From: a virus
Length of the DNA: 64,000 nucleotides
Strand: one strand, 5' to 3'
IMG/VR virus record: IMGVR_UViG_3300050196_000100
Span: 8,392-72,391 of that record
Shown here in pieces: positions 8,144-54,740 of the stretch; position 1 is the first letter of the stretch; every line of letters begins with the position of its first letter. A program made the translations under genes and the position numbers. The notes beneath the pieces were generated by a model. It was not told the DNA's origin. It was given only the letters and a program-made list of their open reading frames with translations, and ran no database searches.

Positions 8144-8707
8144 ATGACTATTCTAAAGCTGTACTGGAAATACATCGCAACATTGATCCTAGGAATTGCG
8201 TTGGGTGCCTATGTCACCTATGTATACTTTCCTCGCATTGTAACCAAAGAATGTACTAAGATTGAAACCCAAGTTGTAACTCAGGTAGAAACCAAGGAAG
8301 TAACCTCGGTGGGCTACGTCCCCAAGACTTCCAAAGCAGACGCAGATGTCGAAGTCACCCGTGCTCCCAATGTTGTCACCGTGTCGGTCAACGGAACCGT
8401 CACAGAGTTGCCAGTGGTGCAGGGTGAAACTCAGAAATTCGAGGAAGGCAAGGTAGTCTTAGAGCAAACTGGGAGCGTCAAGGTAGACGTAACTGCACAG
8501 GTCAAACAACAGGTCACCGATGGCATCAATGATGCATTCAAGGCAGAGCAGAAGAAACCTAAGATCAGGGTGGGTGCTGAGGGTGCTGTAGACGACAAAG
8601 GTAGCGTCGATGGTAACCTTCGTATCTCACGGCAGTCTCAGAAGTACGATGTTGATCTGAGGATTAACAAAAATCGCCAAGTCATTAGTGGAACATTGTG
8701 GTTCTAA
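8144..8707 (+). CDS. N-terminally anchored secreted protein (possible spanin-like accessory)
   Basis: N-terminal TM segment YIATLILGIALGAYVTYVYF; last gene before the late terminator. Confidence 0.45.
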   Translation: MTILKLYWKYIATLILGIALGAYVTYVYFPRIVTKECTKIETQVVTQVETKEVTSVGYVPKTSKADADVEVTRAPNVVTVSVNGTVTELPVVQGETQKFEEGKVVLEQTGSVKVDVTAQVKQQVTDGINDAFKAEQKKPKIRVGAEGAVDDKGSVDGNLRISRQSQKYDVDLRINKNRQVISGTLWF

Positions 8708-20101: not shown

Positions 20102-20707
20102 ATGGGTAACTTATATCTAAGCAATGCGGTAACAGCACAAGGTACAGCTAAATTCTTCAAAGTAAATTCTAAGGTTGATGTCTATGAAGGCAAAGAGACT
20201 GGTTATGTAGCTAATGTATACTTCAGTGAAGCAGTGACTAAAACCATGGTGGCAGACATTAGTAAAGCCATTGCGGATGCTAAGGAATCTAAAGAATTCA
20301 CTAATGCAAAGACAGGTAAACCTGTGAACTGGAGAACAAACCCAAGAGTACCTTATAAAACTGATGATGACGGCAAGGTGTTCTTTGTATTCAAAAAGTC
20401 TCACTTGGATAAAGATGGTAACCGTCAGTACATCCCAATGTTTGACAGCCAGAATAAACCTATGAAAAATGATGTAACCATTGGCAATGATTCTGTAGTT
20501 CAAATCTCATATACACCCAATGTCTACCATAAGAATGAGGATGTCAATGGAGTTAAGTTCTTCATCAATGCAATTCGTGTGATTAAACTTGAGACGTTTG
20601 AAGGGAATCCTTTTGGTGAAGCTGTTATTGGTGGTTATGTTGCGCAAGAGGATACTCCATTTGGCAATGAGGTAGCTGAAGAGTCCAATGACAACATCTG
20701 CTTCTAA
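20102..20707 (+). CDS. ssb: Single-stranded DNA-binding protein (T7 gp2.5-like)
   Basis: TAQGTAKFFKV, FKKS, FDSQNKP...IGNDSVVQI, VKFFINAIRVIKL; acidic tail ending in Phe. Confidence 0.75.
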   Translation: MGNLYLSNAVTAQGTAKFFKVNSKVDVYEGKETGYVANVYFSEAVTKTMVADISKAIADAKESKEFTNAKTGKPVNWRTNPRVPYKTDDDGKVFFVFKKSHLDKDGNRQYIPMFDSQNKPMKNDVTIGNDSVVQISYTPNVYHKNEDVNGVKFFINAIRVIKLETFEGNPFGEAVIGGYVAQEDTPFGNEVAEESNDNICF

Positions 20708-20716
20708 GGGATAACT

Positions 20717-22246
20717 ATGACCAACATGGACACAACCTGTGTCACAACAATGGGTACTGAGGAGTCATCGAACTCCCTTGCCCACCAAGGAGGAAACAAT
20801 GGAGACAATGTATCTAAGTATCACTTTAGAATTACTATGTATGGCGGTGGTGACCAATATAGCAAGCCGTGGTATTTTATGAAACCATCATGGCTGAACG
20901 TTGGAGGTCACAGAGTAAACCTCCCTGACACCATGGACTTCATCGATATGCCATATTTAACACCGTTTGGAACTGTGGCTATACATTTGCATTACCGGGG
21001 AGAACAAAGGGCGCCACGGGCGTGTCAGGAGGTGTACGATGGAAACATGCGCTAACTGTGACAATTACAAAGAATGCCATGATGGTGAGGATTATTCTAC
21101 GGACTGCGATGGTGGATGGGTGCTGCGTAAGGATATTGAGGAATTGCAAGGCAAGCTAAAGAAAGCTTTGGACGCATTGAGACACATGAGACATAGTGAT
21201 CTTGCTCATGCTGTTCTTTGGGACAACTATGATACTCATAGAAAATGGTATTCAGTGCATATGCAGGACTACATCGATGGAATATTGGAGGAATTACGAT
21301 GATACTTATGTTAGACAATGGAACTGTGGTTGTACAATGTGGTCATGGAACAGTCGGAGTCGGTGCAGGGACACTAAAGAGCGGCGAGGTTGCCATTGGC
21401 GCAAGAGAGTTAGAACATAGATGTAACGTGGGTGACAGCGTTCCCAATGGTGATGACCAAGTGATCGTTATGTTTGCCAATGTTGAGTCTGTGGATGTCT
21501 GGATTAGGGCATTGGAAGCTGCGAAGGAGTTGTTGGTGCGTGGATAATTCTAAGGAAGTTCAATATGTAACTGAGAGATTCCTATACTACCTAAAGAACA
21601 TTGGGTCGATCATGAGTGAACTATGTCAACAGAAGTATGCCATTGAGCAGGAGCTTAGTGATCTGAGCCACGAGTTGGAGTTGTCCCAGTTGAATGCCTC
21701 AGAAATGGCTAAGATTGCCAGTGAGCAACGTAGACTACTTCGTGAGCGTCGTGTCTGCAAAGATGAACTATTGTTACTACAGTCATTCAAAGATTTCCAG
21801 AGTTCCCATGATACATTAAAGTATGACTTAGTTAAAACAGTGAGAGAAAACAATGAGGTCGTAGGGATGCTAAGGACTCGGCGGTACAAGGCTAAGGTTC
21901 GTGGGAATCTGCGGTGTTGTTGCGTGGGATAGCTATGGGTTTGATGGACACAAAGTGTGTCGAGGAGGTAACAATGGAAATTCGTATGGAAATTTATGAT
22001 GGTGACCTAGTATACATCATAAATAAACGCCAGATCAAAACAGAGTATGACAAAGAAGTCCTTAGTAAAGCCATAAATGCCATGTGTCACTTGCATTGTT
22101 TTGACTATCGCATGACCACAGAGGAGATTACAGAAGTCATAGCGGATAACAAAGGGCTATATGTGGCTTTCGTATCAATCTCAGGGATACTATATACATG
22201 TGATTATTCAAAGAAGCCAATGAAGCTCAAAGATATAGCTTGGTAA
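20717..22246 (+). CDS. Cluster of small hypothetical ORFs
   Basis: Tightly packed co-directional ORFs (e.g. 20967-21302, 21245-21547, 21474-21932, 21974-22246); exact starts uncertain. Confidence 0.45.
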
Positions 22247-50500: not shown

Positions 50501-52629
50501 TATGGTCTATGATTGTTTTATACATTGTTAACACTCCTTTATTCCTTATCATCCTTGACGATTAGTCTCATGTTCCATTTCGACACACTTTGTGTCCGTG
50601 TTGAACATAGTTGTACCATAGCCACCTGAGACACCTCCTGAGCCTTCCCTACGACGCTGGAGGAGCTAGGGTTTAATCTAAGAGTCTAACATATGATACA
50701 TGCTCAGAGTCCCAAGGGTAATTCTCAGGATCTTTAGGTTCACCATCGATGTCTGTAATGCCCTCTGTATCAAAGAGGTACATAATTAAACATTTGCTTC
50801 CATTGGGTAATTTGGATTCCTGTTGCCATTCCTCGGCATAGCCATGGTTAGACGATCCTTCTAGGAGTCTAGAGGTAGGTTCTGCGTTGCCAATGGCACT
50901 TCCAAAGATAACCTCTGATTCTACTGTTTCCAAGGTTTTACCATGGCTGTATTGTTTTACATTTAATTCCATTGTTATTACCTCCTAATATTCTTCATCC
51001 CTAGCATACTATACAATTCACAGAATTTCAATGACCTCTACAGGACGCTAGGGAGTGCCTAGTGCCTGCCTCCTTGGGTGTGGCATAGTATCGCCTCCTA
51101 GTATTCGTTGGACTGTCTACGGACTACCTGCGCTCACCTCATGGATGACACCGCCTTTCTGAGTATTGTAGTTACTTCAGTGTTACCTCTTGACAATATC
51201 CAGGCATTGCAAGGTAGTACTCACCGCCGTTTATAGCTGTCCAGTGTTCAGCGATGCATTCTTCATCGTTATCCCATTGCTCCATTAGTGAACTATAATC
51301 ATCTTCGAGTAATCCAGTATATCCCTTGTCCTTGCAATAGACTCCTAGCAATTCCAAGGCATCCTGTAGATTGCTGGCATATACTGTAAACTTATGTTCT
51401 CCATAGCTACCCAATGTGAGCAGGAAGGCATTGCTGCCTGTGTACTCCTTGTCATCGTGGTTGACAACTTCGGATGCAAGGACAAATTCGTCGTGCTCTT
51501 CTTCGATTACTTCCCAGGTTTTAGTTGTTACGCGATGTTCTACATCAGATTTTGAATAATTTACAAAGTCACCACCTTCCATAAATAATTTATATTTACC
51601 ATTGATGATATTAACATCGTATGTAGTACCATTAAAATTCTTAATTTTCATTATGATACCTCCTTCTATTATTTAGATTCCTCGTTCTAACACTGACTTC
51701 TTAAAAACACACCATTTAATGGCAGGGTTTATTTCCTCAAATCCTTTCCTTGCATACTCTACGCTAGTCGCTGACATAAATTGCACATTCAATGTAGTTT
51801 GTGTTTTGTTTTCGTTGAGATTTCCGATGAATTCGTTTGAATCAAATCCAACGTACATTTCACGTTTTGCCATTGTAATTCCTCCTAGTATTCTTATTAT
51901 CCTTCAGACCCTCCACCGACTACCGTTGCTCCTGCCAGGCATTCACAAGGAATAGTTGGTGTTGGTCTGTGAGTCCGTGCCGTGGACTAGACGAAGTGTT
52001 GCATGGATGATACTAGGTTAACATTGTAACCAGTGTATCATAGTTTCCTGCGACTCTTAGAATTAACTAAGAGTTTCGACTGCTAACTAAGCAAGTCATC
52101 GTCAGGCAGGGTTATTAGCTTTGATTACTTTAGATTTTAGATATGGTAGTGCATTGATATTCTTTGATGGTTTAACCATTGATATCACCTCGCTTTCGCC
52201 GTATGGCTCATATTCTATGATTAGCCTTGACTTGCATCAAGTTTCCAGTGTCGCCATCGTGGAGGCTCATAGTTGACACCGTGGGAGGGCGATGGTTACG
52301 CCCTTAGTTACTTAGCATTACATCGTCAGGCAGGGTTATTGTTCTTCTCCATATCTCACAGGATTTTTCCAGTTACAAGGTATATTCGATAATTCCATAG
52401 TTTTCAACTTTGCGATTCTATTTAATATCGCAGAACCTACATTCGATAGACTAAGTAGATAATCAAGCTCTTGCTGATTTTTAAAGGACTCTTGAGTTTC
52501 CCACATTGCATAATATTTGATTCCGTTACTATCTACACCAGTAGCACTATATCTAAAATAGCAATCATCGTTATGTTTAGTTGGAGTATTGAATGTTACA
52601 GTATGATAGTTTATTTCTAGTTTAATCAT
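47506..52629 (-). CDS. Leftward arm of ~15 small hypothetical genes (early/host-takeover type)
   Basis: e.g. 48227-48598, 49075-49287, 49290-49946, 50289-50552, 50673-50972, 51172-51651, 51673-51873, 52336-52629, mostly with GGAGG RBSs; driven by promoters at 52695 and 52791. Confidence 0.55.
52047..52110 (-). ncRNA. Type I hammerhead ribozyme
   Basis: Minus strand: CCTGC-CTGACGA-T-GAC(T)TGC-TTAGTTA-GCAGTC-GAAA-CTCTTAG-TTAATT-CTAAGAG-TC-GCAGG; all core nucleotides and stems I-III present; GUC cleavage site between 52052 and 52051. Confidence 0.8.
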
Positions 52630-52666
52630 TGCTGTTCACCGATCCTTTGTTCTTTCTTATGTACTC

Positions 52667-52791
52667 ATTATATCATATGCTAGTAACTGTGTCAATGGCT
52701 TATTCAAGTTTATTCTTAGATTGTTTAGATGATTGGGTGGGCAACTCTTTGACTTGATCTTAGTATATCATATACATTAATGTTGTGTCAA
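52667..52791 (-). promoter_or_regulatory. Two tandem leftward sigmaA promoters
   Basis: TTGACA-17-TATAAT (52695-52667) and TTGACA-18-TATACT (52791-52762). Confidence 0.85.
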
Positions 52792-52894
52792 GGGTTTATC
52801 TAAGTTTATTTCACTGGTGGTCGTGGGTAGGACAGAGGAGTCATTGGTTAGCCGTGGCAATTGCAGCAGTTGACATATGGTGCTCGTTGCTACC

Positions 52895-52915
52895 TGTGGG
52901 TAAGACTGTGGATAA
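52895..52915. promoter_or_regulatory. Tandem DnaA boxes
   Basis: TGTGGGTAA (1 mismatch) and TGTGGATAA (reverse complement of consensus TTATCCACA), followed by AT-rich DNA. Confidence 0.5.
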
Positions 52916-53184
52916 CTGTTGTTACATTGTCAGACAATGATCTAGTTTAGATAACTAGGTCTAAGCATAGAATAAACTATGTAATATAATTTCACATACT
53001 ATATACCATGCTTACAGGGACATAATTTGTCCCACATCGGACCGAAGTAAGCACCTCTGGCAACACTGGTAAACATTGACATAACCTCGCATATCCTTTG
53101 ACACTTCATCAAACTAAAGGGTGGGTTATGATCACTGGGCTGCTCAAAGGTACTAACACCAGGCTCACCTTTGAGTCAACTCTA

Positions 53185-53213
53185 ACTTCCGATAACCTTC
53201 TATTATCGGAAGT
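53185..53213. other. Perfect 11-7-11 inverted repeat, dif-like
   Basis: ACTTCCGATAA-CCTTCTA-TTATCGGAAGT. Confidence 0.6.
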
Positions 53214-53651
53214 ATAAATCAAGCATAGCAAGGGCTGACAGGACACACATAGTCAGCATAGGCTCACAATGCTTCGAGGTCACAGTGGGCTTCTGAGGCT
53301 GTCTAGTGAGGGTACGGTGATATTTCTATAACCAATCTGGGAGACCTTACGGGCAAATCGGCGGCTATTGCACTCGGCTAATCTGCGTCCCAAACCAATG
53401 AAATTCTCCGCATAATCTCCGTAATATCCTCCGCATGACGATGTTATACCTAGGTGATACTTGTTATATCTTAGATCATTATAAACTTCATATAACCCAT
53501 AGAATACATAACGCCACAGGCAATAACTCAGATAAACAATAGGTGTTACATAGGGTACGGTGATAAATTAGGTATAAACCCTTGATATTACTGCGTTTAA
53601 TAATGATTCATATAATATTTCATATGTTACAAAGTTTATCTACTATAACCC

Positions 53652-53680
53652 TTGACACAACTTTGTGCCTGTGGTATACT
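53652..53680 (+). promoter_or_regulatory. Rightward sigmaA promoter with an imperfect motif dyad
   Basis: TTGACA-17-TATACT with TG extension; GACACA-ACT-TTGTGC. Confidence 0.8.
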
Positions 53681-53978
53681 TTAGTCACGGCACAGGTTGA
53701 ACTGTGGAATAACTATGAAGTAAGTGGACACAAAGAGTGTCAAGGAGGAGAACAATGCGCTTCTACGACAAAGTAATGCTAGCCCTTGCATCCAATGTCA
53801 GCAAAGCATCTATAACACTGCCGAGGGTAACACCAAGTATGCTTGGGTTTCTGATGGTGGTCAGTGTATTCGAGGTGGTCTGGGAATGGACGAAGGGATA
53901 GCTGTGAGTTCGTTGGACACAGGTTGTGTCAATGGAATACAGAGTGATTACCTAAAGTAATCGAAGGAGGAAACAATA

Positions 53979-54740
53979 ATGTTCAATGACCGCAAAGTTG
54001 TATTCAAGGCTCTCGTAGGTAGTCACAATTACAATCTCAATGATGAATCCAGTGACAAAGACTGGAAATACTTCGTACTCCCAACATTCGATGATCTCTA
54101 TGGTGGTACTAGATTTAGCGCATCTAAAGTAGGTACAGAGGAAGACTATGATGTCCACGATATCCGTAAACTCACTGACCTGCTCTGGAAAGCCAATGTT
54201 AATTTCTTGGAGGTACTGTATTCCAATGATGTCCAAGAATTCTGGAAGCTAACTGAGCAAGGTGTGCCTAGAAGATTAGCAGTGGGTTCCGCGCATATCC
54301 TTAGAGAGATCTTCGACATCCGTGACTCCATCGTAACAATGAATCTCCCATATTTATACTCTGCCTGCAAGGGAATGTTCCATGAGAAGATGAAGAGGAT
54401 TCAAAGTCCAACATCGGGTACGCAGGAACTTATGGATAAGTATGGGTATGACACTAAGCAAGCATTGCATGCATGGAGAATCTTGGACTTCATTGTACGC
54501 TTCCATGAGTTTGATTGGGATTTCAAAACGGCTATGACATATAACGAAACCGAGCGTCAAAGAATGCTAATGATTAAGCATGGACACTTTGCCTTCGATG
54601 AGTTTAAAGCATTGGCATACGATGCGTACAATGACACATTCCTTGGACTCGAAGATATCTACAAATCCAAAGTACCTAACCTTGAAACCAAAGCTAAACT
54701 AGAGGACTTGGTGAAATCTATGGTTCACAGGAATCTATAG
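53979..54740 (+). CDS. Pol-beta superfamily nucleotidyltransferase (RlaP/Nuc-transf-like)
   Basis: VGSHNYNLN...SDKD, K.N.NFLE.L, YDTKQA.HA.R. Confidence 0.75.
   Translation: MFNDRKVVFKALVGSHNYNLNDESSDKDWKYFVLPTFDDLYGGTRFSASKVGTEEDYDVHDIRKLTDLLWKANVNFLEVLYSNDVQEFWKLTEQGVPRRLAVGSAHILREIFDIRDSIVTMNLPYLYSACKGMFHEKMKRIQSPTSGTQELMDKYGYDTKQALHAWRILDFIVRFHEFDWDFKTAMTYNETERQRMLMIKHGHFAFDEFKALAYDAYNDTFLGLEDIYKSKVPNLETKAKLEDLVKSMVHRNL

Follow-up and report, generated by a model that had tools for sequence, protein, structure and literature searches.

A probable type I hammerhead ribozyme of a pseudoknot-bearing phage subclass in the leftward operon of an uncultured leaf-litter phage

The locus described here raises the question of whether a short stretch between small phage genes encodes a self-cleaving RNA, and what such an RNA would do to the transcript that carries it. 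The stretch lies on the minus strand at 52047..52110 of the window, by which the whole 64,000-nucleotide (nt) DNA analysed is meant (IMG/VR record IMGVR_UViG_3300050196_000100, positions 8,392 to 72,391). The source is an uncultured 80-kb phage from leaf litter, and its IMG/VR record was judged complete. An earlier reading, made from the letters only and called here the sequence-only reading, had proposed a type I hammerhead ribozyme at this place. The present analysis indicated that the element is very likely a functional type I hammerhead of a phage and prophage subclass, the members of which have a stem I of 5 base pairs (bp), carry an extra nt after A9, and join loop II to the 3' tail by a pseudoknot. 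Its most likely role, as judged from this analysis, would be to process the RNA of the leftward operon after its first two genes.

Sequence and predicted fold of the hammerhead

The minus strand from 52110 to 52047 was read, and every conserved residue of the hammerhead core was found. Stem I is formed by CCUGC (52110..52106) and GCAGG (52051..52047), and its 5' strand leads into C3-U4-G5-A6-C7-G8-A9, read as CUGACGA (52105..52099), the columns of which were invariant in the family alignment A1 described below. An extra U (52098) separates A9 from G10.1, and the same insertion was found in most copies of the family. The stem II hairpin, GAC(U)UGC (52097..52091) with GCAGUC (52083..52078), pairs in the order G10.1-C11.1, A-U, C-G, U-A, a bulged U, G-C, and C-G. 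It is followed by G12-A13-A14 of the core (GAA, 52077..52075), also invariant in A1, and by the stem III hairpin (52074..52053), in which CUCUUAG and CUAAGAG together with A15.1-U16.1 give 8 bp closed by the loop UUAAUU. A15.1 is at 52074, U16.1 at 52053, and C17 at 52052 (H17 is not G, as the class requires). The order of the parts is thus stem I 5' strand, core, stem II hairpin, GAAA, stem III hairpin, UC, and stem I 3' strand; both this order and the minimum free energy (MFE) fold show the type I topology, with stem I open and stems II and III closed by loops. The hammerhead architecture predicts the scissile bond between C17 (52052) and G1.1 (52051, the new 5' end), and, as in the class, C17 would carry a 2',3'-cyclic phosphate and G1.1 a 5'-OH. 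All of these parts, including the GUC triplet, were read exactly as the sequence-only reading had described them.

The MFE fold of an 81-nt stretch was exactly the predicted three-way junction, with a free energy of −23.6 kcal/mol and a z score of −3.4. Its stems consisted of 5 bp, 7 bp (with one bulged U), and 8 bp, with G-C at positions 10.1/11.1. Furthermore, a descriptor scan of both strands of the window returned 52110..52047 as the sole type I hammerhead. When the window was shuffled 1500 times with a first-order Markov model, a relaxed motif was obtained at a rate of 0.011 per window, and none of the 1500 had stems as long as those observed (≥5, ≥4, and ≥8 bp). Since a per-window chance near 1e-3 is indecisive given the very many windows in which such a motif could be sought, independent evidence was sought.

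Part of this evidence was provided by a pseudoknot. Loop II contains UAGUU (52089..52085), and the tail contains AACUA (52045..52041, minus strand), which begins one nt (A 52046) past stem I. The two strands, located by loop II/tail complementarity and by the register of the family, form five Watson–Crick pairs in the register typical of the relatives. Loop II and tail of the window copy made at most three pairs with the tail or loop of any other copy. As judged from the sequences, this match is the strongest single argument for a working family member and not a look-alike. The pseudoknot was absent from the sequence-only reading and was added by the comparative analysis.

Phage relatives and the Rfam models

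A 16-mer that runs from stem I through the core into stem II was found in 48 IMG/VR contigs, which is about the chance expectation. Three of the 48 (L006, L015, and L016) extended into a complete hammerhead with the same extra U, and their stems II and III were entirely different from those of the window copy and fully compensated (stem II, GACCCG/CGGGUC; stem III, CACUCCC/GGGAGUG). A wider pattern, which fixed only the core, the U, GAC, and GUCGAAAC (core plus part of stem II), was then applied to viral contigs. It matched 65 viral loci, and all three stems were present in 48 of these. The copies often occurred two to seven per contig, 300–900 nt apart, between small open reading frames (ORFs). 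For instance, three copies each were found in L066, L081, and L114, and L074 held at least seven. Further array hammerheads missed by the descriptor were observed, in oriented coordinates, at L065:2692, L069:4876, L074:2251/2892/5457, and L088:2703; they seem to have two extra nt (GA) or a shifted start of stem II after the core. In L072, L075, L078, and L102, a conserved CUGAGGA...GAUC-loop-GAUC-GAAAC element was seen about 1.3 kb from a full hammerhead. It showed no obvious closure of stem III and led into a ribosome-binding site and an AUG, and it is possibly a hammerhead variant or a degenerate form.

Alignment A1 consisted of 35 distinct copies from other viral contigs, with the window sequence excluded. 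Standard pairs occupied 96% of its cells, compared with 71% in shuffles and 27–41% when the partners were slid, and 148 cells were changed on both sides against 37.8 in shuffles. In the family, loop II pairs with the tail 1–2 nt after stem I, a feature that was not a selection criterion. All three pseudoknot pairs that could be placed in register in A1 covaried, and eight different sequences covary in the family pseudoknot, with examples such as GGC:GCC, UGGUU:AACCA, GAGA:UCUC, GGGA:UCCC, UGAC:GUCA, GCGG:CCGC, and AGC:GCU. The traits in common are the 5-bp stem I, the extra nt after A9, and the covarying pseudoknot between loop II and tail. The extra nt is mostly U, also in neighbouring copies that were not forced to U by the pattern; G, A, or no extra nt also occur.

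A covariance model (CM) of 85 positions, termed R1, was built from A1 with the window sequence left out. R1 matched the window at 52120..52031 over its full length (1–85 of 85) with 58.8 bits and an E value of 3.3e-16, and this was the sole match in the window and in the whole 80-kb phage genome. Together with the covariation and the matching pseudoknot, this result bore out the proposal of a type I hammerhead at 52047..52110 on the minus strand, which was thus reached by sequence reading, MFE fold, descriptor scan, and family CM. In prokaryote genomes, the wider pattern gave at least 120 matches; among the 80 listed, most were chance matches and only 8 passed the CM. Those confirmed among the matches listed came from a Barnesiella genome and from metagenome-assembled genomes of Lachnospira, unclassified Bacillota, and Aquaspirillum. 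Five strong bacterial prophage matches to R1 scored 46.5–69.3 bits, a range that includes the 58.8 bits of the window copy. The presence of copies in several phyla indicates that the subclass is widespread, as expected for prophage-borne elements.

The Rfam models gave a different picture. An Rfam hammerhead search, which the sequence-only reading had named as a check, did not return the site with Hammerhead_1 or any other Rfam family: no family matched there when the whole 64-kb window was searched with Rfam 15 at gathering thresholds, no hammerhead match was obtained in the 251 nt around the site at E ≤ 10, and RF00163 left the site unreported over the whole 80,215-bp virus record. The window ribozyme has the same topology and core consensus as RF00163 (Hammerhead_1), and yet it was not reported by that model at any threshold tried. 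As a control, RF00163 was run on three contigs with more than 12 clear relatives. It reported only L074:4155-4214, which has no extra nt, at 24.7 bits, below the gathering threshold of 34 bits. RF00163 is a 45-position model without the pseudoknot tail, without a position for the extra nt, and without room for the longer stem III. The silence of Rfam was judged to be a limit of the model because RF00163 also misses the relatives with an extra nt, which explains the negative result and does not erase it. RF00163 also gave a sub-cut-off match at 20670-20742 of the window (plus strand; 15 bits, E 0.06), which was taken as probably due to chance; sub-cut-off matches occurred in 13 of 14 control genomes too, and neither the descriptor scan nor R1 found anything at 20670-20742.

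The window ribozyme can be compared with several known systems. The hammerheads of prophages (Perreault et al. 2011, PLoS Comput Biol, PMC3088659) occur in clusters that flank single genes, and they cleaved in vitro and in E. coli; the copies examined by experiment include those of Agrobacterium, Azorhizobium, and Clostridium. The prophage hammerheads and the window ribozyme both have the canonical core, both are intergenic among co-directional phage genes of unknown function, and both link stems I and II by a Watson–Crick pseudoknot that replaces loop–loop contacts. In the prophage hammerheads, pseudoknots were required for fast cleavage at 0.5 mM Mg2+ (PMC3088659). The relatives of the window copy are also clustered around single genes, whereas the window genome holds a single complete copy. 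In the main text and the text-form supplements of PMC3088659, neither an extra nt after A9 nor the core-plus-U motif appears. An extra nt is known from a viroid. According to the summary in PMC3705267 of De la Peña and Flores (2001), the CChMVd (+) hammerhead has an extra A10 between A9 and G10.1, and its change to U raised the cleavage rate 3–4-fold. The window ribozyme has one extra nt at the same place, and on this summary a U there would be compatible with activity or even favourable. The claim of the sequence-only reading that a nt between A9 and G10.1 is tolerated was in agreement with this and with U being the commonest state in the phage family. The CChMVd (+) hammerhead differs in being a type III ribozyme of a viroid, a circular RNA replicon, without a pseudoknot and with unrelated biology. 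In the hammerhead of PDB 8YDC (Zhan et al. 2024, PMC11300833), a pseudoknot likewise replaces the loop–loop contacts, and that ribozyme cleaves very fast by the mechanism of extended hammerheads. It is a designed two-strand construct with the pseudoknot helix in the place of helix II, while in the window ribozyme a normal stem II hairpin lends its loop to the pseudoknot.

The position of the ribozyme relative to stop codons was also shared with the relatives. In the window, U4-G5-A6 of the core is the UGA stop (52104..52102) of a 25-aa (amino acid) ORF. The statistics were obtained for 55 distinct family copies (loci L006-L114) with same-strand ORFs of at least 40 aa; ORF calling is noisy in G+C-rich contigs, and the figures are indicative. 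An ORF stop lay 0–3 nt before stem I in 44% of the copies, compared with 1.8% of random positions and 3.6% of other CUGA sites. The core UGA itself served as a stop in 35% of the copies against 16% at other CUGA sites, and a stop within −11 to +10 nt was found in 91% of the copies against 10–23% in the controls. This placement points to a connection of ribozyme folding with the termination of translation. The next ORF after the family ribozymes began at a median of 41 nt downstream; the spacer in the window was longer, with 173 nt.

The leftward operon and the proposed processing

The ribozyme lies within a block of about 12 small minus-strand genes, from 52629 to about 48227, none of which had a PHROG or Pfam match. 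The first gene of this leftward operon (52336..52629, minus strand) encodes 97 aa of no known family. It is followed by the 25-aa ORF (52102..52179, minus strand), which is putatively coding: an ATG at 52179 stands behind the Shine–Dalgarno sequence AGGUGA at 5-nt spacing, or else the start is a GTG at 52188. The sequence-only reading had noted an overlap with the stop of an ORF of about 26 codons, and it is real as an ORF, with 25 aa and its UGA inside the core. After the cleavage site and the 173-nt leader comes a 66-aa gene (51673..51873, minus strand) behind AGGAGG, the first past the cut, and then about nine more small minus-strand genes to about 48227. The order on the RNA is hence 97-aa gene, 25-aa ORF, cleavage site, leader, 66-aa gene, and the rest of the operon. 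The leader (51874-52046, minus strand) was observed to fold somewhat better than shuffles (z score −2.66), and once cleaved it can form a terminal hairpin with its 5' end, which is the 3' strand of stem I.

Two promoters precede the operon on the minus strand: a consensus sigma-70 promoter at 52695-52667 (TTGACA, 17 nt, TATAAT, with TG; 12/12) and a second near-consensus one at 52791-52762 (11/12). Both are real as matches to the consensus, and they lie 560–650 nt upstream of the ribozyme; the sequence-only reading had placed strong leftward promoters about 560 nt upstream. Terminator-like sites were sought between these promoters and the ribozyme, and none was found. A structured RNA had also been supposed between the half-copy described below and the small ORF; that region folded with a z score of only −1.56 and had no Rfam match, and the idea is not supported. 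In addition, the sequence-only reading called the transcript early, a term that rests on analogy only and is not retained. Between the leftward and rightward gene blocks, 52640-53978 is a stretch of 1.3 kb without long ORFs, in which three consensus or near-consensus promoters were observed, two leftward and one rightward (53652-53680). Rfam over 51600-53980 gave no hammerhead match, and in the ORF-poor stretch gave only a 15-bit match at chance level.

The proposed course of events is as follows. Transcription of the leftward operon from the two promoters, at about 52.7–52.8 kb, would include the ribozyme, which would fold once its 3' tail emerges and would cleave itself between C52052 and G52051. 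The upstream RNA, with the 97-aa gene and the 25-aa ORF, would then have a 3' end formed by a compact ribozyme with a 2',3'-cyclic phosphate, since in type I almost the whole ribozyme stays on the upstream product. The downstream RNA, with the 66-aa gene and about nine small genes, would start with a 5'-OH. The two parts of one transcript would thus be free to differ in stability and translation. Transcription, cleavage, and the consequence for the fate of the mRNA are all inferred. In Bacillus, RNase J1 acts preferentially on the glmS ribozyme product that bears a 5'-OH, whereas in E. coli a 5'-OH slows the entry of RNase E. This opposite handling of the 5'-OH means that the effect on the distal genes would be host-dependent. 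The processing proposed here was in agreement with the family-wide position between co-directional genes and with the processing of polycistronic phage RNA, the role proposed for prophage hammerheads (PMC3088659). According to reviews, the role of phage hammerheads is still open (PMC6155905 and PMC6765202).

The upstream half-copy and the alternative readings

Repeat comparison revealed a paralogous copy of the 5' half of the ribozyme, 31 nt long, at 52310..52340 on the minus strand. It is offset upstream by exactly 224 nt and directly follows the UAA (52338..52336) of the 97-aa gene, a position after a stop codon that is typical of the family. The first 20 nt are identical to the ribozyme and all four mismatches fall in the next 11, so that identity is 87% over 31 nt. 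The half-copy covers the 5' flank, the stem I 5' strand, the core, the U, and G10.1, and is without the stem II 3' strand, GAAA, stem III, and the cleavage site. A second complete ribozyme at this place, even one with a large insert in stem II, was considered and rejected because no ordered GAAA, stem III, GUC, and stem I 3' strand follow downstream and no second CM match was found. Another idea, that the 224-nt repeat represents two or more units of a circular or tandem element that had integrated, was rejected as well, the sequence after the second repeat diverging from that after the first. The simplest history would be that a ribozyme once stood directly after the first gene and was then disrupted or duplicated as the 224-nt, ORF-bearing segment arose. 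The half-copy is possibly a relic of this or a candidate competitor strand.

Several observations weigh against a functional ribozyme that processes the operon RNA. The window copy did not reach the gathering score of RF00163 (34 bits), its stem II has a bulged U, and its helices are A/U-rich relative to most family copies. Moreover, the descriptor that chose the A1 sequences required pairing of stems I–III, and the covariation of the stems is therefore in part a product of the selection, a circularity from which only the pseudoknot and the CM match are free. No close relatives of the phage were found by megablast or blastn against GenBank phages. The 97-aa and 159-aa proteins gave no related loci among viral contigs, nor did the 97-aa protein in metagenomes, and the exact pattern of the stem II of the window copy had no match in metagenomes. 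The neighbouring nucleotidyltransferase had one distant relative (L052, 48% identity), in which the descriptor scan found no hammerhead. Because no close phage relative was found, conservation of the window copy cannot be shown. Finally, in a nearest-neighbour fold of a 316-nt RNA with the upstream context, in which the pseudoknot was uncounted, the half-copy won the stem I 3' strand (pair probability, 0.71 vs 0.24), and the active fold was less stable than the optimum by only 2.2 kcal/mol. Owing to this competition, part of the RNA may misfold.

The last result is also what would be expected of a conditional ribozyme. Such a ribozyme would be held in an uncleavable fold when the half-copy at 52340..52310 pairs with the stem I 3' strand and with parts of stems II and III, and ribosomes at two stops, the UAA before this decoy 224 nt upstream and the UGA inside the core, would pick the fold, so that cleavage reports the translation of the two ORFs. 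The identity of the first 20 nt, the further complementarity of 52313..52303 to the stem III 5' strand and its loop, and the stops at or inside the 5' half in most family copies are all compatible with this, and the stop placement would then reflect a general coupling of termination and folding in the family. If it were true, the operon RNA would cut itself or stay intact according to whether its first two ORFs are translated. This is nevertheless considered unlikely, as half-copies of this kind were found at no other locus of the family, co-transcriptional folding favours local hairpins over the distal strand, and the calculated fold ignores the stability of the pseudoknot. In addition, the identity could simply be recent, and no phage relatives were found in which to test conservation. 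A different explanation of the half-copy is offered if the element descends from the family but has lost useful cleavage or acts mainly at the DNA level, for instance as a conserved gene-boundary linker for module exchange or as the edge of a small mobile ORF cassette, with the half-copy as a scar. Its family-typical place suggests a disrupted ancestral ribozyme, small ORFs in other contigs are bordered by nearly identical copies of the ribozyme, the bulge in stem II might be a sign of decay, and Perreault et al. stated that some copies may be non-functional (PMC3088659). However, decay would not keep all catalytic residues and the covarying pseudoknot intact, and the CM score within the range of the bacterial prophage matches was also unfavourable to this explanation, which is regarded as very improbable. 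The Rfam blank would also be expected if the descriptor had matched an A/T-rich intergenic region by chance and there were no ribozyme at all, and the per-window chance given above would yield many such motifs over about 250,000 windows. Chance fails to explain why the extra U, the 5-bp stem I, the 1-nt spacer, and an in-register pseudoknot of 5 bp occur together, why the site scores so highly against a model built from other sequences, or why it shares the stop-codon position of its relatives, and it is held to be extremely improbable.

A functional type I hammerhead of the phage and prophage subclass is thus the preferred reading. The result adds a well-supported hammerhead to an uncultured leaf-litter phage, and it leaves the knowledge of the class unchanged. 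Furthermore, the phage type I hammerheads with the extra nt and the pseudoknot form a sizeable subclass that the current Rfam models miss, and consequently routine annotation undercounts such ribozymes. The placement on stop codons, together with the decoy-like half-copy, gives concrete and testable ideas on the role of hammerheads in phages.

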